Of a stretch of 64,000 bases of DNA, positions 21,018 through 42,461 are shown one piece after another. The notes under the pieces were generated by a model that was given only the letters and a program-made list of their open reading frames with translations, ran no database searches and was not told the origin of the DNA. This stretch comes from a virus. A program made the position numbers and the translations under genes. The stretch lies in the IMG/VR virus record IMGVR_UViG_3300008050_000030; one strand, given 5' to 3'. Numbering within the stretch: the first letter of the stretch is position 1; each line of letters opens with the position of its first letter.

Positions 21018-21087
21018 TAAAGGTAACGATCTCCGCGTCCCCACAACTGCCAGTTGGCAGCGGGGGACGGAGAAGGTCGGGTTTTCG

Positions 21088-21392
21088 TTACTTCTGGACG
21101 GCCTGCACCTTCGCGCGGGCCAGCACCAGCGCGAAGTCCTCCTTGGGGTGGCGCTCCCAGAGCCACTCGGGCCACTGGTCGAGCCAGGGGAGGACGCGGT
21201 CGGCGAGGTCGGTGGCGGCGCGGGCTTCACCGCGCTCCCGGACGTCGTTCAGGATGTCGATGTCCTCCTGCGTGGGCAGGGGGTACTGGGCGTAGCGGAG
21301 CGCCATGCCCTTGAACCGGGCGGTGGCCTCCTCCTTGCCGTTGCGGAGGGTGAGAGCGAGCAGCAGGCAGCGGTAGTACAGCATCTTCAGCA
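21088..21392 (-). CDS. hypothetical Trp-rich protein (101 aa)
   Basis: GGGATAAGGGAGATGAAGGAGATCCACATG context. Confidence 0.6.
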
Positions 21393-21413
21393 TGTGGATC
21401 TCCTTCATCTCCC

Positions 21414-21686
21414 TTATCCCTCCGGCGGGGGCTCCTCGTTCGTCTCTTCGTTGCTGCGGCGGGCCACGTACAGGTTCACCGGCCACTCGGGGTGGGCGTC
21501 GGGGGTGTAGGCGGCGTAGGCGCTGTAGCCCTCGCCCTCCCCAGTCTCCACGATCTCGATCAGGGGGTAGCCCTTCACGACGAGGATGTACCCCTCGGCC
21601 CGGAAGATGGTGCCGGGCGGTGGGACGACGGGGTAGTTGAAGACGTGCGTGTGGCCGTCTTGGTCTTTGGCGTAGATGGTGAGCAT
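21414..21686 (-). CDS. hypothetical protein (90 aa)
   Basis: Very high GC3; start ATG after CTGATCTGGACTCCCGC. Confidence 0.6.
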   Translation of the reverse strand: MLTIYAKDQDGHTHVFNYPVVPPPGTIFRAEGYILVVKGYPLIEIVETGEGEGYSAYAAYTPDAHPEWPVNLYVARRSNEETNEEPPPEG

Positions 21687-22081
21687 GCGGGAGTCCAGAT
21701 CAGGGGGAAGGGCGCGCTGGCCCAGAGTTGCCGGGCGGTCCAGTCGTAGCACTGATCGCCGACGTAGTTGAACGCGTGCCAGCGCACGCACTCGCGAGCC
21801 TGGTAGACGTAGGGGAAGTCGTAGAAGTAGCCCGTGAAGTCGGGGCTGTGGGACTGCATCTCGATCACGATGACGCCGAAGGTGGGGCGCTCTCCCCAAC
21901 CGTGCTCATCGAACCACGCTCGCTCCTCTTCGGTCTCGCACACCACGCCCTCGCGCAGCAGGAAGTCCATGAACTCTCCACTGGCTTCGACGCAGGCATT
22001 GGAGGCCTCGAAGGGGCTGCGATAGATGCTGCCGGCGCCGTTGGCGAAGGTGGTGACGGCCTCGTCCAATGTCATGGGCAC
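21575..22081 (-). CDS. hypothetical protein; true 3' end uncertain (GC3 decays after about 21690)
   Basis: GAGGAGG SD; GGGCATAAGG upstream; tail overlaps the next gene in its -1 frame. Confidence 0.55.
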   Translation of the reverse strand: MPMTLDEAVTTFANGAGSIYRSPFEASNACVEASGEFMDFLLREGVVCETEEERAWFDEHGWGERPTFGVIVIEMQSHSPDFTGYFYDFPYVYQARECVRWHAFNYVGDQCYDWTARQLWASAPFPLIWTPACSPSTPKTKTATRTSSTTPSSHRPAPSSGPRGTSSS

Positions 22082-22167
22082 CTCCTCGGATCACCTGCCT
22101 TATGCCCTGCAGATCGCTAAGGTTGCGACGCCCGAAGGCGTCGCAGGTGGAAGGTGGTGCCGAGGCT

Positions 22168-22446
22168 CTACGCCTCGGCGGTGGGGGCCGTGCCCCAGCC
22201 CGTCATCATGACGGGACGGTCGGGGCGCGGCATCGCCTTCATCGTCCGGGCCCGCAGCGACGCCGTCCGGGCGTCGAGCTCGGCGGCCTTTTCGTTGTGG
22301 AACCGCACCAGCGGTTCCACGGCCAGGGGCCCGAGCCGCTTGCGCTGCTCGACGATCCGTGCGTTGAAGCGGGCCAGCTTCTCGGTCTCTCGGAGGATGT
22401 CCTCCGCTTCGGCTTCGAGGGCTGCCAGGTCGGGGGGAAGTGCCAT
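22168..22446 (-). CDS. small coiled-coil protein
   Basis: Full cassette GGGATAAGAGAAGTAGACCACCAACCCTGGAGAAAGATCATG. Confidence 0.6.
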   Translation of the reverse strand: MALPPDLAALEAEAEDILRETEKLARFNARIVEQRKRLGPLAVEPLVRFHNEKAAELDARTASLRARTMKAMPRPDRPVMMTGWGTAPTAEA

Positions 22447-22486
22447 GATCTTTCTCCAGGGTTGGTGGTCTACTTCTCTTATCCCT
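22447..22486 (-). promoter_or_regulatory. start-associated cassette
   Basis: GGGATAAGAGAAGTAGACCACCAACCCTGGAGAAAGATCATG. Confidence 0.6.
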
Positions 22487-22515
22487 CGACCAGATCTACG
22501 AGTTGCGCCCCGCAC

Positions 22516-22878
22516 TCATTCCACAGGTTTCCACACTCCCATGTGCAGCTGGAACTGCCCCGTCTCGACGACCCCGAAGAGCAGGTCGCCGTGCTCCTCG
22601 AGCAGGTCTTCGACTCGTCCTTCGAGCTGGCCCCGAGTCAGGGCCGGCTCGCCCGGCCCCCCGAACCCGCTGCTGTCGCAGAAGAGGGTGTCGATTCGCT
22701 CGTGCTTCTCGTCGACGTCGTCGGCGCTGTCGCCGAGGTTCGGGAAGCCGCCGAGCTTGGCGACATCGGTCAGGCTGAAGAACGAGGAGGGGCTCAGGCG
22801 CAGGGGCTGCTTGCCTTCCTCTCGCGCCTTGTCCCCGGCCTCCCGGTTCAGCTCGTTGATCGTCTCAAGTCCCCACAT
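22516..22878 (-). CDS. hypothetical acidic protein (120 aa)
   Basis: AAGGAGTGACACGATG context; high GC3. Confidence 0.65.
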   Translation of the reverse strand: MWGLETINELNREAGDKAREEGKQPLRLSPSSFFSLTDVAKLGGFPNLGDSADDVDEKHERIDTLFCDSSGFGGPGEPALTRGQLEGRVEDLLEEHGDLLFGVVETGQFQLHMGVWKPVE

Positions 22879-22882
22879 CGTG

Positions 22883-23275
22883 TCACTCCTTGATCTTGTT
22901 CCAGCGCTTCACCGTTCGGGTGAATTGGCGCCACAGGGTGTCTCCGGGCCGTACCTTGTCCCGGGCCTGGCCCTCATCCGAGGTCTCCGCCCACAGCTCG
23001 TCGTCGGGGCCCAGCACCTGCCACCACCGTCCCGGGTCGGGCAGGGGAAGGAACCAGGCGATGGCCTCCTCCATGGCGGCATCGAACTCCTCGCGGGTCG
23101 GGTAGACCCCGTGGTTGGTGCCGCGCTTGCCGCTGCGGCTCGTGGTCGTGTAGCTGCCGCTCACCTTGTCGCCCCGCAACGACCAGCTCTCGTCGCCCTC
23201 GAAGCGGACGGCGACGAAGTCGGCGGTGCAGGTGAAGCCGATGACTCGGCCCCCGGCCTTGCCTCGAACAGTCAT
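22883..23275 (-). CDS. hypothetical protein (130 aa)
   Basis: CTGGAGAGATCATG context. Confidence 0.6.
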   Translation of the reverse strand: MTVRGKAGGRVIGFTCTADFVAVRFEGDESWSLRGDKVSGSYTTTSRSGKRGTNHGVYPTREEFDAAMEEAIAWFLPLPDPGRWWQVLGPDDELWAETSDEGQARDKVRPGDTLWRQFTRTVKRWNKIKE

Positions 23276-23526
23276 GATCTCTCCAGTTCCCACTGCCAGT
23301 GCTTGAGGATGTCGGGCAGGCGCTTCAGGGAGTAGAACGGCGGATGGGCGTAGTCGGACGCGCTGGGCTCGACCCAGTGACCGCCGGAGAAGACGACCGA
23401 GGTGATGCGTACCTCGGTCGTCTCGCCGTCTTCGTCCTCCCAGATGACGACGGTCCAGTCCTCTTCAGGCTGCGCCTCCATCTTCGCCAGCTTCTTCTTG
23501 CCGATGGGCTTCAGCTTCGGGCTCAC
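23272..23526 (-). CDS. hypothetical protein (84 aa)
   Basis: GTG after AAGGGGGTG; ATGA-coupled downstream. Confidence 0.6.
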   Translation of the reverse strand: MSPKLKPIGKKKLAKMEAQPEEDWTVVIWEDEDGETTEVRITSVVFSGGHWVEPSASDYAHPPFYSLKRLPDILKHWQWELERS

Positions 23527-23891
23527 GACACCCCCTTCGCACGTTCCTGTGCGCGTTGCAGGTGGGCGGAGGTGATGACGGAGACCACGAACAGTTCGTG
23601 ATCGACCTCCATCAGCAGTTCCTTGCAGTAGTACCGGCTGCGCACGGCGTGCCGGGTCTTCCGTGCGCAGACGGGGTCATCGCCGTGGGCGCAGTCGACG
23701 ACGCAGTCGGAGTAGCGGTCAGCGTCCAGCTCTTCGGTGACGTCGAGGATCAGCTCGTAGCCCTGCACGGTGGAGACGAGGAGCCTCTGGCCCACCGCGG
23801 AGTGCGCGAACCCGTGCAAGGTCACGTCCTTGAGGTCCACGACGTCGCCGCCGAGGCGGGCTTCCAGCACTTTGGGAACGATCACGTCCAT
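23523..23891 (-). CDS. hypothetical protein (122 aa)
   Basis: GAGAAGGG SD; high GC3. Confidence 0.65.
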   Translation of the reverse strand: MDVIVPKVLEARLGGDVVDLKDVTLHGFAHSAVGQRLLVSTVQGYELILDVTEELDADRYSDCVVDCAHGDDPVCARKTRHAVRSRYYCKELLMEVDHELFVVSVITSAHLQRAQERAKGVS

Positions 23892-24274
23892 CCCTTCTCG
23901 AGCTTGATGCTCTTCTCGGCGAGGAGCACGTCGGCACGTCCGTAGCTCATGTCCATGACGAAGAGCATCAGGAGCTGGGCCAGCTCGGCCCCGTTCTCGG
24001 CGACTCGCAGGGACTGGAGCATGTGGTCGTACTTCCCCTTGTCCTGGGCCTGGTCGCGCAGCCGCCGGAAGGGCAGCCGTGCGGTGTGGGCCTCGTCCCG
24101 GAACACGGTGTCGGACAGCCCCCAGCTGTGCGCGAGGTTGCGCACGGTCTCGGGAAGCTGCTCGAAGCGGGCCCGAAGGTCCTCAGGCGAGAGCTTCTCG
24201 TCGGGGCCGACCACGGTGTCGTGGAAGGCGTTCACTCCGCCGCGATCGGCGAAGAGTTCATCGGTGGTCTGCAT
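23882..24274 (-). CDS. hypothetical protein (130 aa)
   Basis: TGATG coupling to upstream gene. Confidence 0.65.
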   Translation of the reverse strand: MQTTDELFADRGGVNAFHDTVVGPDEKLSPEDLRARFEQLPETVRNLAHSWGLSDTVFRDEAHTARLPFRRLRDQAQDKGKYDHMLQSLRVAENGAELAQLLMLFVMDMSYGRADVLLAEKSIKLEKGWT

Positions 24275-24801
24275 CAGGCGTGGTCCACGAAGAAGCGCGG
24301 CAGCCGCTCAGCGGGCTCCGGCTCTTCTTGATTCGGGGTGTCGGCGACGTCGGCGTAGGGGGTGATGTAGAGCGAGTAGTCCTTCATCCGCTTGCCTCCT
24401 CCCAGGTCGATGTAGCCGTTCCAGGTGACCCGGACGGGGTCGCTGGGACCGACCTGCGAGGCATCGATGAGCTGGATGAGCTTCACCCCGGAGAGGGTGA
24501 AGGCGCCGACGCCGGGGACGATGATGAGCGCCACCTCGTAGGGGCCGTACTGCCCCTGGTACAGCGTCCGCCCGGCGTAGTAGCCGGCCAGCTCGCTGCC
24601 CTCCACCTCTGGGCGCCACCGCTGAGGCGCCCGGACCTGCTTCCAGTCGTAGCGCTCCAGGATGTCGTCGCCGACCACCTCAGGCCGCGGACGGCTCTTG
24701 AGGCACTCGAAGCAGGTCACCTTGGCCCAGTCCCTGGTGGAGTCGACGTCCTCCTCGGTGCAGTTGGGGGCTTCGGCGGAGCTGTACCAGTGCGTGATCA
24801 T
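24274..24801 (-). CDS. hypothetical protein (175 aa)
   Basis: GGAGGAGCGAGGATG context. Confidence 0.6.
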   Translation of the reverse strand: MITHWYSSAEAPNCTEEDVDSTRDWAKVTCFECLKSRPRPEVVGDDILERYDWKQVRAPQRWRPEVEGSELAGYYAGRTLYQGQYGPYEVALIIVPGVGAFTLSGVKLIQLIDASQVGPSDPVRVTWNGYIDLGGGKRMKDYSLYITPYADVADTPNQEEPEPAERLPRFFVDHA

Positions 24802-25199
24802 CCTCGCTCCTCCGGCTTGGCGCGCAGGCAGTCGGCGCAGGTGACCTCGGCCCACACCCCAGTGGTGTAGTCGTCGTCGCCTGCGCCGACGCAGTTCTTG
24901 GTGTCGGTGTGCCAGTGCGTCACGGCCCCGGCCTGGACCGGACCGACACCGACGTGCCCGACGAAGCCGCACTTGCACAGGAAGAAGGACGGGCCCTCGT
25001 AGTCGGCCTCCTGGGGGGCGAGCAGGACCACCCGGCTGTGGCAGCCGGGGCAGGTGCTCGACTCCATCTCGGTGACGATGTACGGGCTGGCTTCCGCCCG
25101 CTCGATCGACTCGACCTTCATGGTCAGCTCGAGCTTGATGCCGATGTCGCCGTCATCGTCGATGCCGACGAGGCAGCGGGGGCAGGTGAGATCACTCAT
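24798..25199 (-). CDS. zinc-binding protein with four CxxC pairs
   Basis: CPRC...CPGC...CKC...CADC; GGAGGG SD. Confidence 0.65.
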   Translation of the reverse strand: MSDLTCPRCLVGIDDDGDIGIKLELTMKVESIERAEASPYIVTEMESSTCPGCHSRVVLLAPQEADYEGPSFFLCKCGFVGHVGVGPVQAGAVTHWHTDTKNCVGAGDDDYTTGVWAEVTCADCLRAKPEERG

Positions 25200-25432
25200 G
25201 ATCAGGCTCCCTCCTGAGGATAGCTCCCTCCTCCATGGTGTCCCCGTGCTTGGGGGTGCCGAACTGGGTGATCTTGTTGTGGTGCGGGATCCTCTGCACG
25301 GCTCGAATCCCTCTGGCCGCGTAGGCTTGCCACGGTCCCCAGCTCTTGTCGGGGCGTCGCCGACGCCCCCACCTCTGGCCGCGAGTGAGGGCGCGGAGGG
25401 TGTCGCCCTCCTTGTAGACGGGACGCATGGCT
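25192..25432 (-). CDS. hypothetical basic protein (80 aa)
   Basis: GAGGAGTAGCCATG context. Confidence 0.5.
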
Positions 25433-25499
25433 ACTCCTCGGATTGAAAATGGGCCACACCGCTCGTAGAAGCTGGTGTGGCGGTCCGGCATGTCGGTGT

Positions 25500-25826
25500 T
25501 CAGCAAGTTGAGGATGTCCTGCATCCCCTCGGGCGCCCCCTCAAGGGCACGGGGTGCTTGCCCATGCAGAGCTCGCACACCGTGACCGTGGTGGTCAAGA
25601 ACACCGTCGTCAGCTCTTCGTCCGGGCCCAGAACCCGTGCCAGCGCGGCCTCGCCCCCGAGCATCATCGTCAGTCCCTGCTGGCGGTTCAGGGCGTCCGA
25701 CTTCACCCCGTGCCGCTCCAGCGTCATCCTCCAGAAGAGCGGGAGGCCGCCGGCGCCGATGGGCTTGTCGCACAGCTTGCAGATCGCAGCCGCCCGCAGC
25801 GCATCCTCACGCATGGGGCCCGCCAT
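25500..25826 (-). CDS. hypothetical Cys-containing protein
   Basis: TGATG coupled to upstream gene. Confidence 0.5.
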   Translation of the reverse strand: MAGPMREDALRAAAICKLCDKPIGAGGLPLFWRMTLERHGVKSDALNRQQGLTMMLGGEAALARVLGPDEELTTVFLTTTVTVCELCMGKHPVPLRGRPRGCRTSSTC

Positions 25827-26167
25827 CAGAGGTCCCGCAGCTTGATGTGGAAGGCGCCGGTCTCCTCGCGGAGGAAGAGGCGACGTTGGACGTACCAGAT
25901 CTCCTTGAACTCGGGGTAGCCCGGGTCGATGGGGAAGAGGGACAGGGAGACGAGGACCGTGACGGTCTCGACGTCGATGTCGTCGAAGCTGAGGTCCCGC
26001 ACGATCTCGAGGTCCAGCTCGCCGTCGATCGGGTCGATGCTGATGCGGACCGAGGTGACGTCGCCGTCGACGATGGCGTAGGCGAAGAAGTCCCCCATGT
26101 CGTCGACGAAGTAGCCCCACTCCATCGAGCGCAGGTAGGCGCACAGGCTGTTGATGTCGTCGCCCAT
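25826..26167 (-). CDS. hypothetical acidic protein (113 aa)
   Basis: GAAGGAGG SD; high GC3. Confidence 0.6.
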   Translation of the reverse strand: MGDDINSLCAYLRSMEWGYFVDDMGDFFAYAIVDGDVTSVRISIDPIDGELDLEIVRDLSFDDIDVETVTVLVSLSLFPIDPGYPEFKEIWYVQRRLFLREETGAFHIKLRDL

Positions 26168-26496
26168 CACGCACCTCCTTCGGCGGCCACGGCCTTGGAG
26201 TAGAGCGCGGTCAGCGAGGGGATGGGGGCGAGCCTCTTCCAGCGCTCCCCGATCCAGCCGTAGAAGAGGTCCCCGCTGTAGAGGATGTCGCCTCCACGGG
26301 GCCGCAACCCCTCCTGCAGGGCCCCCTCGGACTCGTTGAGCCAGCGCACGGCGAAGTCGTGGTCGGCGCGGTGTCCCGCGGGCACGGAACGGGTGAGGTT
26401 GACGCGGCTGTCCGGGGGAACGCCGGCGTTGGAGTCGGTGACGAAGAAGACGGTGCGCAGGTGGTCACCGTTGCGGAAGAGGCGGATGCGGTGCAT
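26167..26496 (-). CDS. hypothetical protein (109 aa)
   Basis: CCTGGAGATCTTCAATG context. Confidence 0.55.
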   Translation of the reverse strand: MHRIRLFRNGDHLRTVFFVTDSNAGVPPDSRVNLTRSVPAGHRADHDFAVRWLNESEGALQEGLRPRGGDILYSGDLFYGWIGERWKRLAPIPSLTALYSKAVAAEGGA

Positions 26497-26719
26497 TGAA
26501 GATCTCCAGGTCGGTCCACGACTGCCCGAGGCAGTGGTGCATGGTGGCGATGAAGGAGGTGCCGAGGCCCAGCTGGGCCTCCAGCCACTCCTGCGAGACG
26601 GCGTTGTCGTTGAAGCGGCAGGGGAATCCGCGAGAAGCGCAGTGCCCCAAGACGTGGGCAGGGAGTTCGACGAGCCGGCGCTGGCGCGTCTCGAAGATCT
26701 TGCCGGGTGCGCGAGGCAT
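26465..26719 (-). CDS. hypothetical Cys/His small protein
   Basis: Cassette GGGATAAGGGGCGTAGACCACCAACCCGGAGAACCAATG. Confidence 0.5.
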   Translation of the reverse strand: MPRAPGKIFETRQRRLVELPAHVLGHCASRGFPCRFNDNAVSQEWLEAQLGLGTSFIATMHHCLGQSWTDLEIFNAPHPPLPQR

Positions 26720-26995
26720 TGGTTCTCCGGGTTGGTGGTCTACGCCCCTTATCCCTCCCTCCAACTCTCAGTTGACGCTAAGGAGGGGCGCCACTCCCTC
26801 GACTGTCCCGGCGCACTCGCAACGGGACCAACACGAACTTCATGATCTTTGTCTCCAGGGGTGCGGTTGCCTTATCCCGCTGCGCACGCATGAAGGTGCA
26901 GGGGAGCGACCCTGGTGAAGGATCCCACGGGGAGGGTGTAGGGAGAGAGAGAGAGGGAGGGAGAGCAATGCTCGGGAGCCGGGATCTTGTCGAAC

Positions 26996-27011
26996 ACAAC
27001 TGCGCAGTTGT
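26996..27011. promoter_or_regulatory. perfect 16-bp palindrome ACAACTGCGCAGTTGT
   Basis: Longest version of the recurring CAACTG/CAGTTG half-sites. Confidence 0.55.
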
Positions 27012-27124
27012 CATTCGGCAGAGGCCGTGCGTCCTCCCAGAGAAACAGCAACACCTAGTTGCTCAACAGGGAACTGCGCAAGCGGTCCGAAATCTACGAC
27101 AACCGAGTGTCCTACGCTAAGCGA

Positions 27125-27153
27125 GACCCTCCCCCCAGCGTAGGGGAGAGGGT
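27125..27153. terminator. GC-rich hairpin
   Basis: GACCCTCCCC-CCAGCGTA-GGGGAGAGGGTC, preceded by GCTAAG. Confidence 0.55.
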
Positions 27154-27187
27154 CTGCTTCCAGAGTGCCACGCGGCGACCCCTGGAA

Positions 27188-27205
27188 GAGCGCCGCGCGG
27201 CGCTC
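27188..27205. terminator. perfect palindromic hairpin GAGCGCCGCGCGGCGCTC
   Basis: 18-bp self-complementary sequence just after the stop of the 27205..27405 gene. Confidence 0.55.
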
Positions 27206-27405
27206 TAGTTCGAGGTGTCGGGCTCCTCGGCCTTGGGGGCCTCGGCCTCCTCGGCCTTGGAGAACTTGCCCTTGATCCAGGTGACGGCCTTGCCACCGGT
27301 GCGGGACCAGATCGGCATGGCGGCGACGCCGCTCAGGAAGGTGAGGGCCAGCACGAGGGCGAGCTTGACGAGGGACTGGGCGGTGAAGCGGGCGATGGTC
27401 TTCAT
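27205..27405 (-). CDS. small single-pass membrane protein (MKTIA-family paralog)
   Basis: MKTIARFTAQSLVKLALVLALTF; full promoter cassette upstream. Confidence 0.55.
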   Translation of the reverse strand: MKTIARFTAQSLVKLALVLALTFLSGVAAMPIWSRTGGKAVTWIKGKFSKAEEAEAPKAEEPDTSN

Positions 27406-27588
27406 GATCTTGACTCCAGGGGTTGGTAGGAACGCGTCGCAGAGAGCACTTGCTTCCTGGACACTTCTCTTATCCCCCCGTAGAGGGCTGATTTCACGAG
27501 ATCCGTATATCTCTGCGGCTATCTCAATTCCTGGGCGAGGGGCCTTCATGAGGTAACTGTGTAGTGGCCGCCGATTCAGGGCCCGGAT

Positions 27589-27733
27589 GCCAACCGCTTG
27601 TTGTACCCCCCGCCGGTCGGGGACTTAGGCGTCAACTGCTTGTTGTAGTGACCGCTGGTTTGGGACCTGGGTGCCAACTGCTTGTTGCTCCCATATACCT
27701 GGCCCGGAATCTGGAGTGACAACCACTTGTTGC
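27589..27733. repeat. four tandem direct repeats with about 42-bp period
   Basis: Cores CAACCGCTTGTTG 27591, CAACTGCTTGTTG 27633 and 27675, CAACCACTTGTTG 27720. Confidence 0.7.
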
Positions 27734-27796
27734 TAAGGACAATCGGCCGGGGACCCGGGGCAACGGCATGCAGCCATGTACCCCGGGTCCCAGATC

Positions 27797-28135
27797 TCAT
27801 CGGCCACAGCCAGAGCACTCCGTGAGGGGGAGCCCCTGCTGCTTCTCGTGCCGCACCAGCCGCGGGCTGGTGAGCACGATCTCGTTGCTGTGTCGCCGGT
27901 TCCACGGCATCCAGAGCCGGGTGCGCAGCTCCACGCAGTCTCCGGGGGAGACGACCTTCATGTCCTCGCGGAACACGGAGATCTGCGTACGTGTACGGGG
28001 CACCTCGTACGTGTAGGTCTTGGTCCCGTCCGAGAAGACGTAGACATCCCAGACCTTGTCCGGGGCGCCCTTCTTCTGACGGCGGGCGTCCACCTCGCGG
28101 GAGACGAGGTGGACGCTCAGGGTGACGGCAGCCAT
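27797..28135 (-). CDS. hypothetical protein (112 aa)
   Basis: TGATG coupled; C-terminal CSGCGR. Confidence 0.6.
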   Translation of the reverse strand: MAAVTLSVHLVSREVDARRQKKGAPDKVWDVYVFSDGTKTYTYEVPRTRTQISVFREDMKVVSPGDCVELRTRLWMPWNRRHSNEIVLTSPRLVRHEKQQGLPLTECSGCGR

Positions 28136-28497
28136 CAGCCCAAGGTCACGGTGTCGAGGACCTCGTACACCCAGGCCTCGTGATCCCGGGCCTCACCGCG
28201 CCAGACCTGCTCGTGGCGGAGCATGATCAGCGTGGCCAGGTGGCCAGGCTTGTCGAAGTCACCGAGACGCTCCAGGAGCTTCTCCTTCATCTCCTTCTGG
28301 TACGCGTGGTAGGTCTCGCGGTCGACGCCGTCCGAGAGGTCGATCAGCCAGATCGGTCGGCCGACGAGGTAGCCCTGCAGGCTCATGAGGTAGTTCCGCA
28401 GCTCCATGCGGCGACGCATGGCCCGTCCGAAGAGGCCGACGATTCCGAAGAGGCCGACGATGACGAAGGTGATGAGGAGGCGGGCGAGGGTCTTCAT
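28135..28497 (-). CDS. small membrane protein (MKT-family paralog)
   Basis: MKTLARLLITFVIVGLFGIVGLFG; full cassette upstream. Confidence 0.65.
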   Translation of the reverse strand: MKTLARLLITFVIVGLFGIVGLFGRAMRRRMELRNYLMSLQGYLVGRPIWLIDLSDGVDRETYHAYQKEMKEKLLERLGDFDKPGHLATLIMLRHEQVWRGEARDHEAWVYEVLDTVTLG

Positions 28498-28560
28498 AGT
28501 GAGCTCCAGGGGTGGTTGGTCTACTTCTCTTATCCCCCAGTGACAACTCCCAGTTGTCGC
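28498..28560 (-). promoter_or_regulatory. promoter/5'-UTR cassette
   Basis: Minus sense: GACAACTGGGAGTTGTC ... GGGGGATAAGAGAAGTAGACCAACCACCCCTGGAGCTCACTATG. Confidence 0.6.
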
Positions 28561-28753
28561 CCAACGCTAAGGGAGGGGGATTGGCGATCCCCTTAGCCCA
28601 GATCCCGAAGGAGCTGGTCCCATGAGAGGAAACCTCACCTGCGGCCGGGGCGTCCGGCCGGCGGGGATCGAACCCGCTCCTGTTCATGCCCAGCCCCCTG
28701 CTGCGTGTACGTGGAGGTGCCGGCCTCACCGCAGCAGGGGGTTTGTCGATCAC

Positions 28754-29194
28754 TCAGACGACCCGGAGGCCTCGGGGGTTGCCGGACTCGTCGAGGCCGA
28801 GGGCCGCGCGCTGCTCGGGACCGAGCATGCCGGCCTCCATGAAGGCGTCACGCATCTGCTCTCGGGGCAGCACACCCTCCCAGCGCCACTCGACGGTGCC
28901 GTTGGGGGCGATGTGGCGCTGGGTGTGCGCCACCTCTCCTGGCCGGGCGAGGGCGTGGCCCACGTGCTCCGCCGGCAGGCGGAAGAGCGCGTACCCGACG
29001 TCGAGCTCGACGGACCCGTCGGGGTAGACCGCGGCGACGCGGGCCTCGGTGGGCTGGTCGACGGTCATCGTCTCCGGCTTGGCGGCGGGCTTGGTGGGCT
29101 TGGCGGCGGGCTTGCGCCATCCCAGCAGGGTGACGATGGCTCCGAGGATGAAGCCGAGGATCACGGGGGCGAACAGACGGATGAAGGCCTTCAT
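28754..29194 (-). CDS. membrane protein with Lys/Pro-rich linker (MK-family paralog)
   Basis: MKAFIRLFAPVILGFILGAIV; AKPTKPAAKP linker. Confidence 0.65.
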   Translation of the reverse strand: MKAFIRLFAPVILGFILGAIVTLLGWRKPAAKPTKPAAKPETMTVDQPTEARVAAVYPDGSVELDVGYALFRLPAEHVGHALARPGEVAHTQRHIAPNGTVEWRWEGVLPREQMRDAFMEAGMLGPEQRAALGLDESGNPRGLRVV

Positions 29195-29255
29195 TGGAAA
29201 CTCCAGGGGTTGGTGGTCTACTCCTCTTATCCCGCCGTACCAACTGCCAGTTGCC
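29195..29255 (-). promoter_or_regulatory. promoter/5'-UTR cassette
   Basis: Stop TGA then GGCAACTGGCAGTTGGTACGGCGGGATAAGAGGAGTAGACCACCAACCCCTGGAGTTTCCAATG. Confidence 0.6.
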
Positions 29256-29852
29256 TCAGTCGTACAGGCCCAGCGCAGCGACGACCGCGTGCGCCTTCTT
29301 CAGGGTCTTCTCATCGACCGACCCCCCCGGGTCGATCGAGACCCGGATGTAGATGCCGCTCCGCTCGAGCTCGTAGTCTTCGACGTAGGGGAGCGCCCGC
29401 TCCTCGGGCTCCTCCTGCGTCTCATGCGCGCTTGCGACGGCCAGGGCGTCGCTGAGGTAGCAGTTGCACCGCGGCTCCTCCTCCCAGCTGTTCTGGTGGG
29501 TGCAGGCGTCACCGTGCGCCTGGTCCGAGTCGGAGACGCGCTGGAGCACGGCTCGGAGCAGCGCGATCGTGTGCGCCTCTTCGGAGGGCTCGGAGTAGGT
29601 CTTCTCCGCGTCGCCCATGGCGAAGATGCGAGCCGGCTTCGCATGCGTCCGGAGGATGTTCTGGATCGGCCTTCCCATGAGGAGGCCGGTGGAGTCCTTC
29701 ACGCCGAGGATCTCCCACCCCTCGCCTTCGAGATCTTCGACCGCCTCCTTTGCGATGACGGCGGGACCGGCGATGCCGACCTGCGCACTCGTGGTGCTGT
29801 GGCGGATCTGAAGGAGCTGGGTGCGGGTCAACAGGATGTCTTTGTCTGCCAT
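29256..29852 (-). CDS. hypothetical protein (198 aa)
   Basis: Cassette upstream; high GC3. Confidence 0.7.
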   Translation of the reverse strand: MADKDILLTRTQLLQIRHSTTSAQVGIAGPAVIAKEAVEDLEGEGWEILGVKDSTGLLMGRPIQNILRTHAKPARIFAMGDAEKTYSEPSEEAHTIALLRAVLQRVSDSDQAHGDACTHQNSWEEEPRCNCYLSDALAVASAHETQEEPEERALPYVEDYELERSGIYIRVSIDPGGSVDEKTLKKAHAVVAALGLYD

Positions 29853-29965
29853 GATCTTCTCCGGGGAAGGGGTTCACACCTCTTATCCCCCCATACCAAC
29901 TGGAAGTTGTCAGCTAAGCAGGAGCGAGGGGGGACCCTCGCTGCGACTGCTTTCGGCCCGCCCCC

Positions 29966-30285
29966 CTAGAAGGGGGACAGGTCTTCCAGCCCGGTTCCGA
30001 ACCGGGCCCGGACTGCGTCCCACACGCGGCACGCCGCGTAGTACGGCAGCCCAATGGGTGCCGTCACCACCAGCAGGGCGGCCATGCCCGCGCGCTGCCA
30101 GCCCGACTCCGACGAGTCGGAGGCGAACCCGACCCCGGTCCCGTACAGGGACCCGAGCATCCTCGTCACCGTGACGGTGATGAAGGAGGCGGCGGCGAGA
30201 GCCAGCGGCCGGAGCGCTGCCGTGAGGCAGCGGGTCAGCAGGGTGGCGATGAACTTGGCGAGGAACTTGGCGATGGTCTTCATAT
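29966..30285 (-). CDS. small membrane protein (MKTIA-family paralog)
   Basis: MKTIAKFLAKFIATLL; CCCTGGAGTTCGATATG context. Confidence 0.6.
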
Positions 30286-31151: not shown

Positions 31152-31188
31152 GTCGGCGTCTCGCGGTAGGTCACGCTCAGGGACATGC

Positions 31189-32061: not shown

Positions 32062-32097
32062 CACTCTTCTTATCCCCTCAACAACTCCCAGTTGACG

Positions 32098-32766: not shown

Positions 32767-32873
32767 TGCTCCTCCAGGGTTGTGATCTCCTTATCCCGCC
32801 GGACCCGCATCGGTTGCTAAGAGCGAGCGTCCACCGGACCCAGGAACCACGAGGGTTCCTGGGTCCGAGGACT

Positions 32874-33582: not shown

Positions 33583-33647
33583 ATGATCTCCGGGGGTTGT
33601 GGTCTGCTTCTCTTATCCCTCCGCGGCAACCCCCAGTTGACGCTAAG

Positions 33648-33680
33648 AGAGGAGGGGCAGCCGTAGCCGCCCCTCCTCTC
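33648..33680. terminator. GC-rich hairpin
   Basis: GAGGAGGGGC-AGCCGTAG-CCGCCCCTCCTC between stop and next cassette. Confidence 0.55.
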
Positions 33681-33697
33681 CCTCGGCCGCCGCCGTC

Positions 33698-34225
33698 CTA
33701 CATGTCGTCGAAGCCGGCCGCCGCCGGCTCGTCGTCGGACACCCACTGGGTGCCCTCGGCGGCCTCGTCGGCGGGGACCGTGAAGGAGTCGGCCACCGCC
33801 TCGCGGCGGCGGCGCTCCTCGGCCAGGAAGGACGACGCCTGCGCCGCCTCGGCCTGCAGACCCGCCATGCGGGCGCGCATCTCCTCCATCTCCATCGCGA
33901 TGGCCTCCTGGCCGTTGCCGATGACCTCGAGCGCCGGGCGCTCGAGGCCGAAGATGGCGCTGACGGTGTCGTGGGCGGCGACGGCGGGGATCCCCGCCTC
34001 CGTCATCGTCGCGAAGGCCTTCGCGAAGGCCGTCGCCTTCGCCGTCGCCACCTCGACGCTCTGGAGGCGCACCTGGTGCACCCCCATCACGATGCCGGTG
34101 ATGGCGGACGTACCGAGCGTCACGAGGCTGGTGGCGTGTGCGAGTTCGTCTTCGAGGCGGGCCTTGCGCTCCTCGCGCTCGAGCTCCATCTCCTTGCGGC
34201 GGGCAGCGATCTGGTCCTTGGTCAT
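33698..34225 (-). CDS. hypothetical Ala/Glu-rich coiled-coil protein
   Basis: CCTGGAGACTGAGACCATG context. Confidence 0.65.
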   Translation of the reverse strand: MTKDQIAARRKEMELEREERKARLEDELAHATSLVTLGTSAITGIVMGVHQVRLQSVEVATAKATAFAKAFATMTEAGIPAVAAHDTVSAIFGLERPALEVIGNGQEAIAMEMEEMRARMAGLQAEAAQASSFLAEERRRREAVADSFTVPADEAAEGTQWVSDDEPAAAGFDDM

Positions 34226-34314
34226 GGTCTCAGTCTCCAGGTCGAGGGGAAGTTGAAGTCCTCGACACCTCTCTTATCCCTCCAACAACCGCCAGTTGCA
34301 CTCGGATCTAAAAG

Positions 34315-34385: not shown

Positions 34386-34424
34386 TCCTTATCCCCCGAA
34401 ATCGGGGAGTTGCCGATCGGGGAG

Positions 34425-36997: not shown

Positions 36998-37477
36998 TCA
37001 GGCGGCCTTGGCTTCTCGCGCCTTCTTGGCCTTCTTGGCCCGGCAGGTGCGGCAGTGGGACTGCGCGGCGACGCGGACCTTCTCGCCCTCCTTCTTCGTC
37101 TTCGTCTTCATGTTGCGGTAGCCGAACATCTTCGCGATGTCGCCCGTCTCGTTGCAGCTGGGGCAGGTCTTCTCGCCCGTCGGCCCACCCGTCGGCGTCT
37201 TCCGCTTCGCCGGCGTCTTCTTCGCCTTGGCCTTCTTGGCCGGCGCCTTCTTGGGCTTGGCGGCCGGGGCCTCGTCCGCGGCCAGCAGCTTGGTCAGCCG
37301 CGTCTGCGCGGGCTTCACGACGAGGACGCGGGCCTCTCGGGGCTCCACGCCGGCGTCGGTGTCCCCGACGAGGGCACGCAGCACATCGACGTTGTCCTCC
37401 TTGCGGACGGCGTTGCGGGCGTCGACGCCCCGCATGCCCAGGATCTCGGTGATGCGGTCTTCGGTGGTCTGGCTCAT
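36998..37477 (-). CDS. lysine-rich nucleoid-associated-like protein with C-terminal zinc ribbon
   Basis: AKPKKAPAKKAKAKKTPAKRK tract; CPSC...CRTC; N-terminal SAP/Rho_N-like helix. Confidence 0.7.
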   Translation of the reverse strand: MSQTTEDRITEILGMRGVDARNAVRKEDNVDVLRALVGDTDAGVEPREARVLVVKPAQTRLTKLLAADEAPAAKPKKAPAKKAKAKKTPAKRKTPTGGPTGEKTCPSCNETGDIAKMFGYRNMKTKTKKEGEKVRVAAQSHCRTCRAKKAKKAREAKAA

Positions 37478-38399: not shown

Positions 38400-38879
38400 T
38401 CAGGGGCAGTTCTCGTTCACGAACTCACGAGCTTCATCGGGCCGCAACTCGGCCCCGAAGTAGTCCTCCCGGGCGAAGGTCGTCTCCACGAGATCGTGTC
38501 CGTGGCGCCCCCAGCTGTGGGATCGCCAGACCCCGTCGTCGAGGCAGTATCCGGTGATGAGGACGAGCCTCTCGTCGAGAAGCCACTCGTGGGAGATGTT
38601 GGAGTGGCAGCGTCCGGCCTCCCCCTCCCGGAGCTGGATCTTCTCCGGGCGGTAGGGCTGGCCGCGCTCGAGGAGGATCTTCAGATGCTCCTCGATGCCG
38701 TTGACGCAGATCTCTTCCCCTCCCTCAGCGAGGAGCACCTCCCGCAGTCTTGCCAGCGCCGGCTGCACGCGTAGGGCGCTCTCGTACCTCGATCTCAGGA
38801 AGGTCAGTTGTCGTGGGGTCATCAGGCAGTCGTTGCTGAAGGAGTCGTTGAGCGCGCTTCGGCTCGGTTCCGAAGGCAC
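38400..38879 (-). CDS. hypothetical protein (GTG 38879 or ATG about 38822)
   Basis: Strong GC3; +1 frame relative to the 3' tail of the sigma factor ORF. Confidence 0.55.
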   Translation of the reverse strand: MPSEPSRSALNDSFSNDCLMTPRQLTFLRSRYESALRVQPALARLREVLLAEGGEEICVNGIEEHLKILLERGQPYRPEKIQLREGEAGRCHSNISHEWLLDERLVLITGYCLDDGVWRSHSWGRHGHDLVETTFAREDYFGAELRPDEAREFVNENCP

Positions 38880-39816
38880 CGCGCACTGCGCCGGCGGAGA
38901 CGCCGGGAGGGAGCACGGTCTCGGTCAAGATCTCGTAGGACTCCGCCATCCCGGCCAGAGAGCCTTCCAGCTCTCGGACACGGGCGCGCAGAGCCGCCAC
39001 GGTGTACAGGTCGTCCTCGGTCATTCCCTCCGCCATCTCGGCCATCTTCTTCATGGCCCGCAGCTCAAGTTGTCGTACACGTTCGCGAGTCAGGCCCATG
39101 TCGGTCCCGACCATCTCCAGGGAGTCGCCTTCCTTCACGAGCGAGGGGTGGCCGCCAGGAAGCATCCTTCGCCGAAGGATGATGTACCGCTCTCTCGCCG
39201 GAAGAGCCCCCAGGAGCATGCGGACGACCAGTTCTCGTCGAGAGGCTCGCCACTGGATGTCGTAGGCGTCCTCGGGGGTGTGTCGGTCGATGAACAGCTG
39301 GTGAGGAGGGCGGTCCTCGTCCCCCAGATCTTCTCGCTGCTCCCACCGCAGAACGGCCTGGAGCCGGATGAGGTCCTCCACGGGGCGGCCCACATCCTTG
39401 GACAGGCTCTCCATGAACTTGTCGTCTCCCAGGGTCTCCGAGACGGAGTTCCCGGTCTTCATCATGTGCCGGGTGATGCGAACCAAGGCCGCTTGTGCCC
39501 AGGAGGAGCGAGTGGCCTTGAACTGGTCCTTTTCGAGGCGGCGGTAGCGCTGGAGAAACGCCTTGATCCAGTGGTAGCAGTAGGTGGACAGGCGGGCCTT
39601 CTCGGGGTCGTACTTCAGCACGGCTCGGTGGAACCCCATGGCGACCTCCTGGAAGGCGTCATCCGGGTCCAGACCCTTGCCGTGCGTGTGCACCATCTTC
39701 CAGAACAACTGCACGTACGAGCGCGTGAGCGTGTTCATGGCGTTCGAGTCCCCCGCCTGTGCAGCGCGAGCAAGCCGGTCCTGCTCCTCTGCCGGGAAGG
39801 GAGGTAAGGGGGTCAT
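38725..39816 (-). CDS. RNA polymerase sigma factor, sigma-70 family
   Basis: Region 2 (STYCYHWIKAFLQRY) and region 4 (GLTRERVRQLELRAMKKMAE); GCTGGAGGTGCCGATG context; coding GC3 fades after about 38880. Confidence 0.8.
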   Translation of the reverse strand: MTPLPPFPAEEQDRLARAAQAGDSNAMNTLTRSYVQLFWKMVHTHGKGLDPDDAFQEVAMGFHRAVLKYDPEKARLSTYCYHWIKAFLQRYRRLEKDQFKATRSSWAQAALVRITRHMMKTGNSVSETLGDDKFMESLSKDVGRPVEDLIRLQAVLRWEQREDLGDEDRPPHQLFIDRHTPEDAYDIQWRASRRELVVRMLLGALPARERYIILRRRMLPGGHPSLVKEGDSLEMVGTDMGLTRERVRQLELRAMKKMAEMAEGMTEDDLYTVAALRARVRELEGSLAGMAESYEILTETVLPPGVSAGAVRGAFGTEPKRAQRLLQQRLPDDPTTTDLPEIEVRERPTRAAGAGKTAGGAPR

Positions 39817-39867: not shown

Positions 39868-40756
39868 TCAGGACCGCTCGACCACGATGGTCGGCAGGCC
39901 CTCGGTGGTCCGCTCCTCCAGCAGCAGCTGGCCGCCGCGGGCGAAGGTGAGGCCGGACAGGTTCTGGAGGCGGCACAACCGCTCCAGCGCCCAGCCGATG
40001 GTCTCCAGGTTGGACAAGTCGACGACGATGTCGCCACGGTAGTCGAAGCCGATCCCCTCGGAGTCCGCCCGCATCTCTTCGCGCCAGGGCTTCGCCGTCT
40101 CCTCGACCTTGTCGGCCGGGCGGAGCTTGACCGGCGCCTTCTTCGGGGCCTTCTTGGCCGGCTCCTTGGTCGGCTCCGCGCTCACCCGCTCCACGACGCG
40201 CCCGAGGCGGTCGAAGCGGAACGGGGCCGTCTCCGGCGTCGTGAGCAGCGTGCCCAGTCCGCCGTTCTGGACCATCTTCGTCTCCATCGCGGTGAGGGTG
40301 AGGTGCTGCGCCGTCTTGCCGACGCTGGGGTCGAGCGCGGTCTTCCCCTTCGCCGCCGCGACGGCGTTGCGCAGCACGGAGCAGGTCGGGGAGCTGATGC
40401 CCTTCCCGTGCTCCTTCTTGACGGCCGACTGCAAGGCCGACTGCCCCGTCGCGGGGTTCTCGGCGACGACGTTGATGGCGGTGAAGCGCCGGCGAGCGGA
40501 CTCGCGCTGCTTGTCGGGCAGCTCGGCCCAGAGGTGGGTGGTCGTGGTCATGGTCTCTTCTTCCAGTTGTTTTCGCAGGGCGTTGTAGGCGCGCATGAGG
40601 CGGTTGGAGCTGTGCTTCCGCAGATAGCGCTTCTCCACCTTCAGGGACCGTCCGTCTGGCGATTTCCAGAGTTCGGACTGTCCTCGATTGCCCACACGCG
40701 ACCAGCCGTTGCGGGTCAGGAACTGGAGAATCTCGGTGGTCATGGGTGTCTTCATG
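39868..40756 (-). CDS. protein with HicA/YcfA-like N-terminal domain and STAS-like C-terminus
   Basis: GWSRVGNRGQSELWKSPDGRSLKV resembles the HicA core; C-terminal VVDLSNLETIG...LTFARGG; lysine-rich linker. Confidence 0.6.
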
Positions 40757-40869
40757 CTCGAGCCTCCAGGGGTAACAATGCCCTTATCCCGCGCAGATCC
40801 GCGCATTGCTAAGCGAGGGCCCACCCCACGGTGGGGTAGTCGCCGTGCGGCGGGCCCTGCTTCGGATCC

Positions 40870-41160
40870 TCAGCCGCCGGCGATGCGCCGGCGGACTCGG
40901 ATCCTCGTCCCCACCTGGAGAGGGGACGTTTCCTGGGGCGCCTCGGGAGGCGCCTGCACCTTCTTGGGCTTCGGCGGAGGTGCCGCCATCGCCCGCTGCC
41001 GGTGCATCTCGCGGGCGAGGGCCCGCTTCATCTTGATCTTCGCTCGTGCTCGGCGGCGCTTCATCTTGCGGGAGGGCTTGCGTCCTCCGCTACCGCTGCG
41101 CGTGAGCTTCTTCTGCGTTCCAGGTCGGGGGTGACCCCCGGTGTGGCGGTGGTGATCCAC
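40870..41160 (-). CDS. highly basic small protein
   Basis: KMKRRRARAKIKMKRALAREMHRQR; high GC3; weak RBS. Confidence 0.5.
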   Translation of the reverse strand: MDHHRHTGGHPRPGTQKKLTRSGSGGRKPSRKMKRRRARAKIKMKRALAREMHRQRAMAAPPPKPKKVQAPPEAPQETSPLQVGTRIRVRRRIAGG

Positions 41161-41181
41161 GTTCGTCTTTCGTGTGTGGGG

Positions 41182-41469
41182 CTACAGCAATCGCTGCCAC
41201 AGGGGCTTCTTGCGCTCTTCGATGCGGGCGAGGATCTCCTCTTCCGTCACCCCGGTCTCCTCGCGGAGCTGCGGGTGGTGGAGGAGGACGAGTTCCTCGG
41301 GCAGAAACCGCCCCATCGTCCCGTCGTCGAGCTGGTAGTCCACTCCCTCCTTCTCGAGCCGTGCCAGGTGGCTTGCGAAGGCGCCCGTGTGAGCGGCGAG
41401 GAAGGGGACCGTGAAGGGGAACATGGAGGCCGCGCCGGCCAACAGTCCCCAGATCAGTGCGTACAACAT
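41182..41469 (-). CDS. small membrane protein (95 aa)
   Basis: MLYALIWGLLAGAASMFPFTVPFLAA; AAGGGA SD. Confidence 0.55.
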   Translation of the reverse strand: MLYALIWGLLAGAASMFPFTVPFLAAHTGAFASHLARLEKEGVDYQLDDGTMGRFLPEELVLLHHPQLREETGVTEEEILARIEERKKPLWQRLL

Positions 41470-41536
41470 CGAACCGTCCCTTCAGGCGTGCGACGCCCCC
41501 CAGAATCGGGGGACGCCGCATTCCCTGGAGAAAGGA

Positions 41537-42370
41537 CTACTCCGCCTCGTCGGCGGGCTTGTCCTTGCGCCCCCGGTACCAGCGGGAGCCGGCCTTGACC
41601 GTTTCCGTGGTGACCGAGAGCCCCGCGCCGACCGTGACCACCACGGCGCGAGAGTTGGGCAGCCGGGAGATCTTCCCGGCCACGAGCTTGTAGAGGAGTC
41701 CGAAGGCCACGGCCTTCGCGACGGTGTTGACGGGGTCGAAGGCCGCTCGGCCGCTGATGCGGCTGTAGTCCAGGGCCACCTGGCCCCACGGCGTCGTGGC
41801 GCGCTTCGGGGCGGCCTCCTCGCGGGCCACCTTCGCGGCCCGCTCGATGGCCGAGGCCATGTCCGCCGTCATGGCCTCGCGGATGACGGCCTCGAGGCCC
41901 TTGGCCATGGCCTCCACCTCGTGGTCCTCGCTCACCTCCATCGAGAGGAGGTACTCGCGGACCACGCCCCCGAGCGCCTCGGGGCTGATGGCCGAGGAGA
42001 GGTCGTCCTTGGTGGGGACCTTGCCGTCGGCGACCATCTGGTTGAACTTGGAGACCTCGGCCTCCAGCTTCTTCCAGGTCTTCTGGCCGAGGATCGACTC
42101 GATGCGGGCGTCGACGGCGGGGCCGGCGGCCTCGAGGGCGGGGCCGGCGAGCGCCTTGGCCTCGTGCTTGAGCACGATGGCGCCGAGCTCGACGGCGAGG
42201 GCCTCGGAGACCTCCGGGCTGACCGCGTCGCAGTTGCCGACGGCGGCATCGAGCAGGAGCGCCATGACGACCTTCTGGTCGTCGGGGTTGAGCTCGTTGA
42301 GGGGGACGCTGACCACGTCCCCTCCTTCGGGGAGGATCACCTCGGTGGGGGCGGAACTGGAATCGGTCAC
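41537..42370 (-). CDS. Ala/Glu-rich hypothetical protein (277 aa)
   Basis: GTG start; cassette GGGGATAAGGCGACTACAACCCCAGGCACACGTGCCCCAACGGAGATACATCTAGTG. Confidence 0.7.
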   Translation of the reverse strand: MTDSSSAPTEVILPEGGDVVSVPLNELNPDDQKVVMALLLDAAVGNCDAVSPEVSEALAVELGAIVLKHEAKALAGPALEAAGPAVDARIESILGQKTWKKLEAEVSKFNQMVADGKVPTKDDLSSAISPEALGGVVREYLLSMEVSEDHEVEAMAKGLEAVIREAMTADMASAIERAAKVAREEAAPKRATTPWGQVALDYSRISGRAAFDPVNTVAKAVAFGLLYKLVAGKISRLPNSRAVVVTVGAGLSVTTETVKAGSRWYRGRKDKPADEAE

Positions 42371-42443
42371 TAGATGTATCTCCGTTGGGGCACGTGTGCC
42401 TGGGGTTGTAGTCGCCTTATCCCCTTCTTCTGGGCAGTTTTCA

Positions 42444-42461
42444 GGCAACTCAAAAGTTGCC
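42444..42461. promoter_or_regulatory. palindrome GGCAACT-CAAA-AGTTGCC in divergent intergenic region
   Basis: Perfect 7-bp arms; variant of the CAACT/AGTTG site. Confidence 0.5.

Follow-up and report, generated by a model that had tools for sequence, protein, structure and literature searches.

Genomic Setting

A family of short palindromic sites with the consensus CAACTG-N-CAGTTG is found in the IMG/VR virus record IMGVR_UViG_3300008050_000030, where the majority of copies lie next to a repeated promoter-like motif, GGATAAG, and could serve as binding sites for a phage regulator. The 64,000 nt of this record, referred to here as the window, correspond to positions 19,896-83,895 within the 188,377-bp ENA metagenome contig ERZ27249009 k141_382418 and have a G+C content of 66%. 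All genes between 18.2 and 42.4 kb run leftward, and a rightward operon begins at 42.5 kb. The contig also codes for endolysin, glycosyltransferases and ligases, and proteins longer than 1,100 amino acids are encoded just beyond the window, one of them with a phage lysozyme domain. Since such proteins are present on the contig, its source is a large uncultured tailed phage of a lineage of at least 188 kb. The window flanks (8.3 kb on the left and 6.4 kb on the right; 14.7 kb in total) hold neither GGATAAG nor a palindrome of the family.

Nearly all proteins of this lineage are ORFans. No close relatives by DNA were found in curated phage records, and none among IMG/VR and GTDB genomes. Relatives were obtained solely through a metagenome scan with the promoter/leader pattern described below, followed by look-ups of the encoding contigs. 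They are fragments that come from three or more related phages (L118, L148 and L158-161; L151 and L140; L155-157), to which L115 can be added as a further relative fragment.

The Palindromic Sites

The pattern CAAC-N5-GTTG occurs 14 times in the window versus 0.34 expected (Table 1). All copies are intergenic, lying between called genes in the range 21044-34298. The stricter pattern CAACTGNCAGTTG, with up to two mismatches, gives 12 matches versus 1.57 expected. CAAC-N5-GTTG ranks first among all palindromes composed of a 4-mer, a gap of N4-6 and the reverse complement, in a ranking where several palindromes of coding periodicity are likewise inflated against the naive background. The centre base of the consensus is free (A5 C5 G8 T1). 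As spacing controls, N4 gives no match and N6 gives two versus 0.52 expected, a number too small to be significant by itself. The two N6 sites, at 26996 and 42444, are long perfect palindromes, and they are taken as real because they recur at syntenic places in relatives rather than because of their number.

The sites had first been pointed out in a preliminary description made by reading the sequence, and they are all present, with coordinates and examples correct to within one base (32082, not 32083). This includes the 16-mer at 26996 and GGCAACT-CAAA-AGTTGCC at 42444, both of N6 spacing. The possibility raised there that shuffled sequence would yield palindromes at a similar frequency is not borne out, as none of 100 dinucleotide shuffles reaches 14. 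The tandem repeats at 27589-27733, said to be built from a related half-palindrome, do consist of four copies of CAAC(C/T)(G/A)CTTGTTG. The palindrome had also been placed just 5' of a fixed 10-mer. The position is right for eight copies, which stand 5-7 nt before GGGATAAG, whereas the 10-mer is not always GGGATAAGAG; GGGATAAGGG is found at 26746, GGGATAAGAA at 32067 and GGGATAAGGC at 31960.

Table 1. Sites, motifs and genes in and around the leftward block of the window. Palindromes are listed without strand.
Feature	Position	Strand	Remarks
Palindrome CAACTGGCGGTTG (gene-strand reading)	34286-34298		6 nt before GGATAAG 34273-34279
Palindrome CAACTGGGGGTTG	33627-33639		8 nt before GGATAAG 33612-33618; behind strong hairpin and CTTAGCG
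Palindrome CAACTGGGAGTTG	32082-32094		6 nt before GGATAAG 32069-32075, then tRNA-like gene
Palindrome CAACCGACAGTTG	31975-31987		Directly behind tRNA-like gene; 6 nt before GGATAAG 31962-31968
Palindrome CAACTTCCAGTTG	29897-29909		8 nt before GGATAAG 29882-29888
Perfect palindrome CAACTGGCAGTTG	29241-29253		8 nt before GGATAAG 29226-29232
Palindrome (GA)CAACTGGGAGTTG(TC)	28544-28556		8 nt before GGATAAG 28529-28535
Palindrome CAACTGAGAGTTG	26762-26774		7 nt before GGATAAG 26748-26754
Putative -10-like 10-mers attached to palindromes	34271-34280, 33610-33619, 32067-32076, 31960-31969, 29880-29889, 29224-29233, 28527-28536, 26746-26755	-	
Free-standing array of four 13-mers	27591-27732		Copies at 27720, 27675, 27633 and 27591; spacing 42-45 bp
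Second non-coding cluster	26996-27111		ACAACTGCGCAGTTGT 26996-27011 (perfect 16-mer, N6); CAACTAGGTGTTG 27049-27061 (13-mer); degenerate GACACTCGGTTGTC 27098-27111
Free-standing perfect copy (13-mer)	21044-21056		Behind the stop of gene 21088-21486
Variant GGCAACT-N4-AGTTGCC (GGCAACTCAAAAGTTGCC)	42444-42461		Divergent region, N6 spacing
Half-only site CAACTCGTAGATCTG	22491-22505	-	Upstream half alone, at the usual distance from GGATAAG 22478-22484
Other upstream-half-only sites	32803-32816, 34398-34412, 40794-40808		
Cassette module	26746-34280	-	Hairpin, (C)TTAGC, palindrome, GGGATAAG, CA-rich leader and GGAG, before ORFans and tRNA-like gene
tRNA-like gene	31990-32062	-	5' end 6-7 nt after GGATAAG 32069-32075
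Divergent sigma-70 family gene	38725-39816	-	Regions 2 and 4; accessory; C-terminal extension of about 100 aa
Predicted sigma70-type promoter TTGCCA-N17-CATACT	42457-42485	+	Rightward operon; conserved in L155 and L158
Cro-like XRE helix-turn-helix protein, 61 aa	44198-44383	+	Last gene of rightward operon

The Promoter-Like Motif and Its Cassette

The core of GGGATAAGAG is GGATAAG, of which the minus strand of the window has 22 copies and the plus strand none; 21 of the 22 fall within the leftward block (18.5-42.4 kb). The 10-mer with at most one mismatch has 14 matches versus 2.6 expected. The motif is fixed 25-35 nt ahead of GGAG-N5-8-ATG, with the conserved CA-rich leader GTAGACCACCAACCC between, and in all relatives it is found on the gene strand before genes. 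It also precedes a tRNA-like gene in the window, and in L118 another tRNA-like gene begins 7 nt after GGATAAG. Because these genes begin 6-8 nt downstream, which is the distance from a -10 hexamer to the start of transcription (GATAAG can be compared with TATAAT), we infer with good support that GGGATAAG is the -10-like element of a phage-specific promoter. A consensus scan at the cassettes detected no TTGACA-like -35 and no sigma70 promoter.

The two tRNA-like genes (window 31990-32062; L118 4138-4205) have abnormal anticodon loops. ARAGORN reports the window copy as 'tRNA-???' with the 4-base anticodon cgca, and it calls no tRNA for the L118 copy, for which Rfam aligns only 4 nt (GCAA) to the anticodon loop. 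The 5' ends of both match the predicted transcription start. The Rfam scan returned tRNA and nothing else.

In the window, L118 and L148 the palindrome lies 4-8 nt, mostly 6 or 8 nt, before GGATAAG. Since the start is placed about 7 nt past GGGATAAG, the palindrome would occupy the -35/spacer zone (approximately -34 to -20), with the 13-mer spanning -34 to -22 at an 8-nt gap and -32 to -20 at a 6-nt gap. Upstream of the palindrome, strong GC hairpins followed by (C)TTAGC can be recognized. The hairpins are strong (z <= -4) upstream of five of the 22 promoters and weaker at others, and no T-tract stands behind them. Two other readings of these parts were considered and rejected. TTAGC as a -35 element, or a MerR geometry with a dyad in a fixed 19-20 bp spacer, does not agree with a distance from TTAGC to GATAAG that varies from 18 to 30 nt. 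An upstream open reading frame started by the motif is inconsistent, as GTG follows only some copies.

The palindrome is found on eight of the 21 promoters of the 18.5-42.4 kb block, all within 34.3-26.7 kb, and about four further promoters of the block have the upstream half only. It is mostly missing from the 42.4-34.4 kb part, which holds a sigma gene, and from the 26-18 kb part.

Protein Site or Nucleic Acid Structure

The best reading of the palindrome is a two-fold symmetric, sequence-specific protein site rather than a hairpin, because the arms are conserved around a free centre and changes in the half-sites are non-compensatory. The inner arm pairs of 19 promoter-proximal sites, in which the outer CAAC/GTTG had served to find the sites, comprise 19 consensus pairs, one compensatory double change, five G-T pairs and 13 mismatches. 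Typical 13-mers fold at -1.9 to -2.8 kcal/mol, which is no better than shuffles. An intrinsic terminator or RNA hairpin was therefore rejected, since the compensatory pattern, a T-tract and better folding than in shuffles are all missing. More broadly, the palindrome could act as a structure, either as a cruciform or as a hairpin with a terminating or processing role in read-through RNA. It does lie directly behind terminator-like hairpins, its longer versions fold at -7.5 and -8.6 kcal/mol, and the arms at 42444 are conserved, the one change in them still allowing a G-U pair. Between phages, however, it is the sequence rather than the pairing that is conserved, and with the mismatches counted above a structural role is largely refuted and is the most improbable of the explanations considered.

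Conservation in Related Phages

Conservation of the site in related elements had been suggested as a check, and the same palindrome is indeed found at the same place in relatives (L118, L148, L158). L118 is syntenic with 34.3-26.5 kb of the window and contains nine CAAC-N5-GTTG in 9 kb versus 0.04 expected. Several of these are perfect CAACTG(A/T/G)CAGTTG copies (CAACTGACAGTTG, CAACTGTCAGTTG, CAACTGGCAGTTG), and seven of the nine lie 4-8 nt before GGATAAG. The free-standing clusters are syntenic as well: the window array at 27720/27675/27633/27591 corresponds to L118 6336/6428/6464, and the second cluster at 27098/27049/26996 to L118 7374/7477. The window copy at 21044 has a syntenic counterpart at L148 7405. 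About 40 nt downstream of the 21044 copy lies a TATACT -10-like hexamer (21003-21008, minus strand). The gene that starts at 20981 has no GGATAAG, and its TATACT resembles the CATACT of the sigma70-type promoter in Table 1.

The cassettes are 76-90% identical between the window and L118, whereas the proteins between them are 34-36% identical, unrelated or replaced. Window cassettes match many different L118 cassettes (79-90% over 40-55 bp), and the order of modules differs, as the 32874 gene precedes a small open reading frame and the tRNA-like gene in the window but follows both in L118. A homologue search with the 32874 protein recovered only the protein itself. The small open reading frame at 32137-32298 contains a homopolymer difference at position 32186 (C5 in the window; the ENA assembly of this phage has C6), which is either an assembly error or a frame-shifting variant in the population. 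With most genes between the cassettes unrelated, the 26-34 kb part of the window compared with L118 has the appearance of a hyperplastic region with shuffling like that of the promoter-early stem-loop (PeSL) cassettes of T4-type phages.

These observations could also mean that the palindrome is mainly a part of a repeated cassette of about 50 bp, which provides homology for recombination that shuffles ORFan modules and is possibly the target of a recombination protein. The cross-matching cassettes, the largely different gene content between them, the altered order of the 32874 module and the documented PeSLs (PMC2839356; PMC4122927) favour such a role. On the other side, the conservation falls into discrete blocks with free positions and variable spacing between them, which argues for selection on motifs and not for plain homology. 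There are also free-standing copies without the rest of the cassette, and no recombinase is linked to the palindrome. Shuffling could be a passive by-product of any repeat, and may be a passive consequence of repeats here. A mainly recombinational role is therefore considered improbable.

The clusters at 27.0-27.7 kb suggest a further alternative, in which they are replication-origin iterons or a partition site and the copies at promoters are secondary sites of the initiator or partition protein. The four copies at 42-45 bp spacing, their location in a non-coding stretch of 320 bp with locally AT-richer blocks and the retention of the clustering in L118 agree with this proposal. Spacing in L118 is nevertheless different (92 and 36 bp), no initiator or ParB-like gene was seen nearby, and the majority of copies are at promoters, so that an iteron or partition function is highly improbable. 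At the second cluster, a non-coding stretch of about 320 nt (window 26880-27200, minus strand; L118 7290-7650) is 68% identical over 208 nt. It contains three palindrome-like sites and a CT-rich tract and no conserved open reading frame. Regulation, an origin and the coding of a small RNA are all possible roles for this stretch.

The Divergent Region and Candidate Binders

Across the window, L155 and L158, the variant site at 42444 is conserved in its arms and varies in its centre. The -35 of the TTGCCA-N17-CATACT promoter of the rightward operon lies in its right arm. Measured from the start predicted for the leftward promoter with GGATAAG at 42416-42422, the centre of the site is at about -43.5. 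Downstream of TTGCCA-N17-CATACT is a small leader hairpin (42486-42530, plus strand), whose stem changes are compensatory among these three phages; behind the hairpin come GAAGGAAGG and a GTG start.

Three kinds of binder had been proposed for the palindrome, namely the XRE protein, a ribbon-helix-helix (RHH) protein encoded at 54062-54229 and the sigma-associated proteins. Of these only the first can be called plausible. Scans of about 45 proteins with Pfam, PHROGs and NCBIfam detected the XRE helix-turn-helix protein and the sigma as the only DNA-binding proteins. The XRE protein is 67-69% identical in relatives, and its invariant stretch CGMKRQQVSRL is presumably the DNA-reading helix. Its gene is the last of the operon whose -35 is overlapped by the 42444 site, a layout that resembles an autoregulated early operon, and it is a plausible and the best candidate for the binder. 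A PDB search with this protein gave a weak HigA match only. Past the XRE gene a conserved promoter-like block (44379-44420, plus strand; CCTTGACAG...GTTCAGACTGTCAGCAC) is kept in L155 and L158 and holds the inverted repeat TGACAGTC/GACTGTCA.

The RHH candidate had no match in the hidden Markov model scans, and its single-sequence AlphaFold model is one long helix (pLDDT 75) and uninformative. The sigma protein is closest to RpoH/RpoS models, far below their cut-offs, and gave only remote matches (at most 33% identity) to phage and plasmid records. The window phage and L115 have its gene, which L151, L155/156 and L158 lack at the corresponding position. Relatives without it keep GGATAAG, and L118 and L158 also keep the palindromes. 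Sigma-associated binders are therefore not favoured, and the sigma itself as reader or binder of the motifs is weakened, unless these relatives carry a copy elsewhere in their genomes.

Two other proteins of the window can be mentioned here. The protein encoded at 36998-37477 (minus strand) is a highly conserved early protein, 61-67% identical in relatives and without a family match. By eye, its N-terminal region resembles a HeH/SAP-like DNA-binding motif and is joined by a lysine-rich linker to a zinc ribbon at the C-terminus, so that the protein is possibly DNA-binding. An 867-aa protein (60489-63092, minus strand) has major-vault-protein shoulder and repeat domains; over 96% of its length it shares 38% identity with LR756500-503 proteins ('huge phage', from 'uncultured phage' records of 462-735 kb).

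The Palindrome as a Candidate Operator

The most probable role of the palindrome is that of an operator for a dimeric phage-encoded regulator, which would control one insulated module; the probability of this reading is put at roughly 0.5. Recognition by a dimeric regulator had been proposed in the preliminary description and remains the best interpretation, as the arms are conserved, the centre is free, some copies have no promoter and the sites are kept in relatives. The palindrome shows several of the properties by which operators can be recognized. It is symmetric with a free centre, several copies lie over predicted core promoter elements (eight at GGGATAAG and one variant over the -35 of TTGCCA-N17-CATACT), and it is the sequence rather than the pairing that is conserved and kept in relatives. 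The further proposal that the site would coordinate the whole cassette regulon has to be abandoned, because only eight of the 21 promoters carry it.

A survey of half-sites covered 55 GGATAAG promoters, all phages together. CAAC starting at -21 to -19 from GGATAAG is found in 26 of the 55 promoters, versus about 0.5 expected, and about half of the promoters have neither half. Several points weigh against an operator. The downstream half (GTTG, at -12 to -10) is present in only 15 promoters compared with 26 for the upstream half. The upstream half stands alone in about 11 promoters, often followed by GATCTG, and the downstream half never does, which fits a -35-like element better than decayed operators. 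Half-sites at 42444 and 26996 are one base further apart, so that another protein may bind there. Sites that are orthologous between relatives cannot be counted as independent observations, the transcription start is a predicted one, and the binder is represented by candidates.

For this reason the upstream half may have a role as a -35-like contact, which would be either the main rival of the operator or a second function of the same sequence. In its full form this alternative holds that CAACTG is the -35-like element of the GGGATAAG promoters, read by the holoenzyme through the phage RpoH/RpoS-like sigma or another factor, with the inverted second half being secondary or having a different purpose. 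The distance from CAACTG to GGGATA is 12-14 nt, within the range of group-3 and RpoH-type sigmas. The upstream half is slightly better conserved at promoter-proximal sites (G6 in 17 of 19 versus C8 in 11 of 19), and the window does encode a divergent sigma with regions 2 and 4. Nevertheless, perfect symmetric copies exist, at least nine copies have no GGATAAG nearby, and in the window array it is the other half that is better preserved. About half of the promoters lack any CAAC, and relatives without a sigma gene at the corresponding position retain the motifs. A -35-like element as the main function is thus regarded as rather unlikely, while being the principal competitor of the operator.

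The proposed operator would work within a composite cassette in which a GC-rich hairpin is followed by (C)TTAGC and the palindrome; 5-7 nt separate the palindrome from GGGATAAG(AG), behind which stand a CA-rich leader, GGAG and ATG. With GGGATAAG as the -10-like element and transcription starting about 7 nt downstream, the palindrome would cover approximately -34 to -20, the region in which a -35 contact is expected. By binding to the palindromes, a regulator would switch together all eight insulated cassettes of 34.3-26.7 kb, each of which has a single gene or a tRNA. Since about half of the promoters have neither half-site, GGGATAAG seems sufficient for recognition, which leans toward repression by occlusion as somewhat likelier than obligatory activation. 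The free-standing clusters at 27.0-27.7 kb, of which the array at 27591-27732 sits 115-245 nt upstream of the promoter at 27469-27475, could form a high-occupancy region ahead of this particular promoter. The 42444 variant would lie over the -35 of the operon that encodes the XRE protein, as is expected for autoregulation.

Comparison with Known Systems

Parts of this arrangement can be found in several phage control systems. In T4 middle promoters, an asymmetric MotA box at -30 replaces the -35 and is read by a monomer together with AsiA, and in phage Mu the dyads of Mor and C are centred at -43.5. The window promoters are like those of T4 in combining a -10-type element with a phage-specific box at the place of the -35 (centred at -26 to -28), although the MotA box is asymmetric and the window site symmetric. 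The 42444 variant, centred near -43.5 from a GGATAAG promoter, resembles the Mor/C dyads. Homologues of MotA, AsiA and Mor were not detected among the scanned proteins. MerR-type promoters differ in their dyad within a fixed -35/-10 spacer of 19-20 bp.

PeSL cassettes of T4-type phages consist of a stem-loop and a promoter that flank ORFans in a hyperplastic region (PMC2839356; PMC4122927). The window shares with them the composite cassettes of terminator-like stem-loop and promoter, the ORFans and the hyperplastic region of a large phage genome, and in both the cassettes are more conserved than the genes. The different place of one module in L118 hints at module shuffling of the kind described for PeSLs. 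PeSL promoters differ in matching the sigma70 consensus, which GGGATAAG fails, and in having no operator-like palindrome.

The system most similar in its working is that of the Streptomyces phage phiC31, whose repressor was reportedly found (Wilson and colleagues in 1995, Smith and colleagues in 1999, are said to have described this) to bind conserved inverted repeats (CIRs) at multiple conserved early promoters. As in the window, many copies of one palindrome are said to accompany unusual conserved promoters in a high-GC phage, often behind terminators, so that one regulator acts on many promoters. The CIRs are reportedly 17 bp long, of another sequence and bound by a known repressor, whereas no repressor or integrase is evident in the window phage.

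The closest documented analogue is provided by the SAS and ESAS sequences of Cluster K mycobacteriophages. SAS is an asymmetric 13-bp motif in one orientation, GGGATAGGAGCCC, with 11-19 copies before non-structural genes, 3-7 bp from the start codon and overlapping the ribosome-binding site; about half of the SAS sites are preceded by ESAS, a pair of imperfect inverted repeats of 17 bp with 4-13 bp between them (Pope et al., 2011; PMC3203893). The function of SAS/ESAS was still without a test in 2025 (PMC12699233). The first ten bases of SAS, GGGATAGGAG, are one base off the GGGATAAGAG of the window. Both systems have a one-stranded repeated motif, about half of whose copies carry an imperfect inverted repeat immediately upstream with the left arm better conserved; the fraction is similar in the window (8 of 21). 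In both, the sites are kept before different gene families. The window motif differs in standing 25-35 nt before ATG with a GGAG of its own and also 6-8 nt before tRNA-like genes, and its arms are 6 bp long and 1 bp apart. It has no sequence or phage relatedness to the mycobacteriophages. Since neither the position of SAS nor the dimensions of ESAS are found, the window sites are not regarded as members of that family.

By analogy, the cassette might be a transcriptional counterpart of SAS/ESAS, although this is a speculative proposal of low probability. GGGATA(A/G)GAG would be a -10-type element read by a modified polymerase, and the dyad would be read by a dimeric phage factor that takes over the -35, in a MotA-like appropriation of sigma; the left half alone would give basal recognition and the full dyad switched control. 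As the motif of the window is independent of the ribosome-binding site and stands before tRNA-like genes, such a case would argue for SAS-type motifs acting in transcription and not in translation. A SAS-like motif that lies clearly apart from a ribosome-binding site thus bears on the open function of SAS/ESAS. The palindrome is a real and conserved feature and most likely a regulatory one. Its motif is new, but it represents an already known and otherwise conventional kind of phage control element. It defines, with the terminator-like hairpin, the non-sigma70 -10 motif and the leader, a regulatory grammar for an uncultured lineage, and provides a short DNA site with which the regulator can be fished out.

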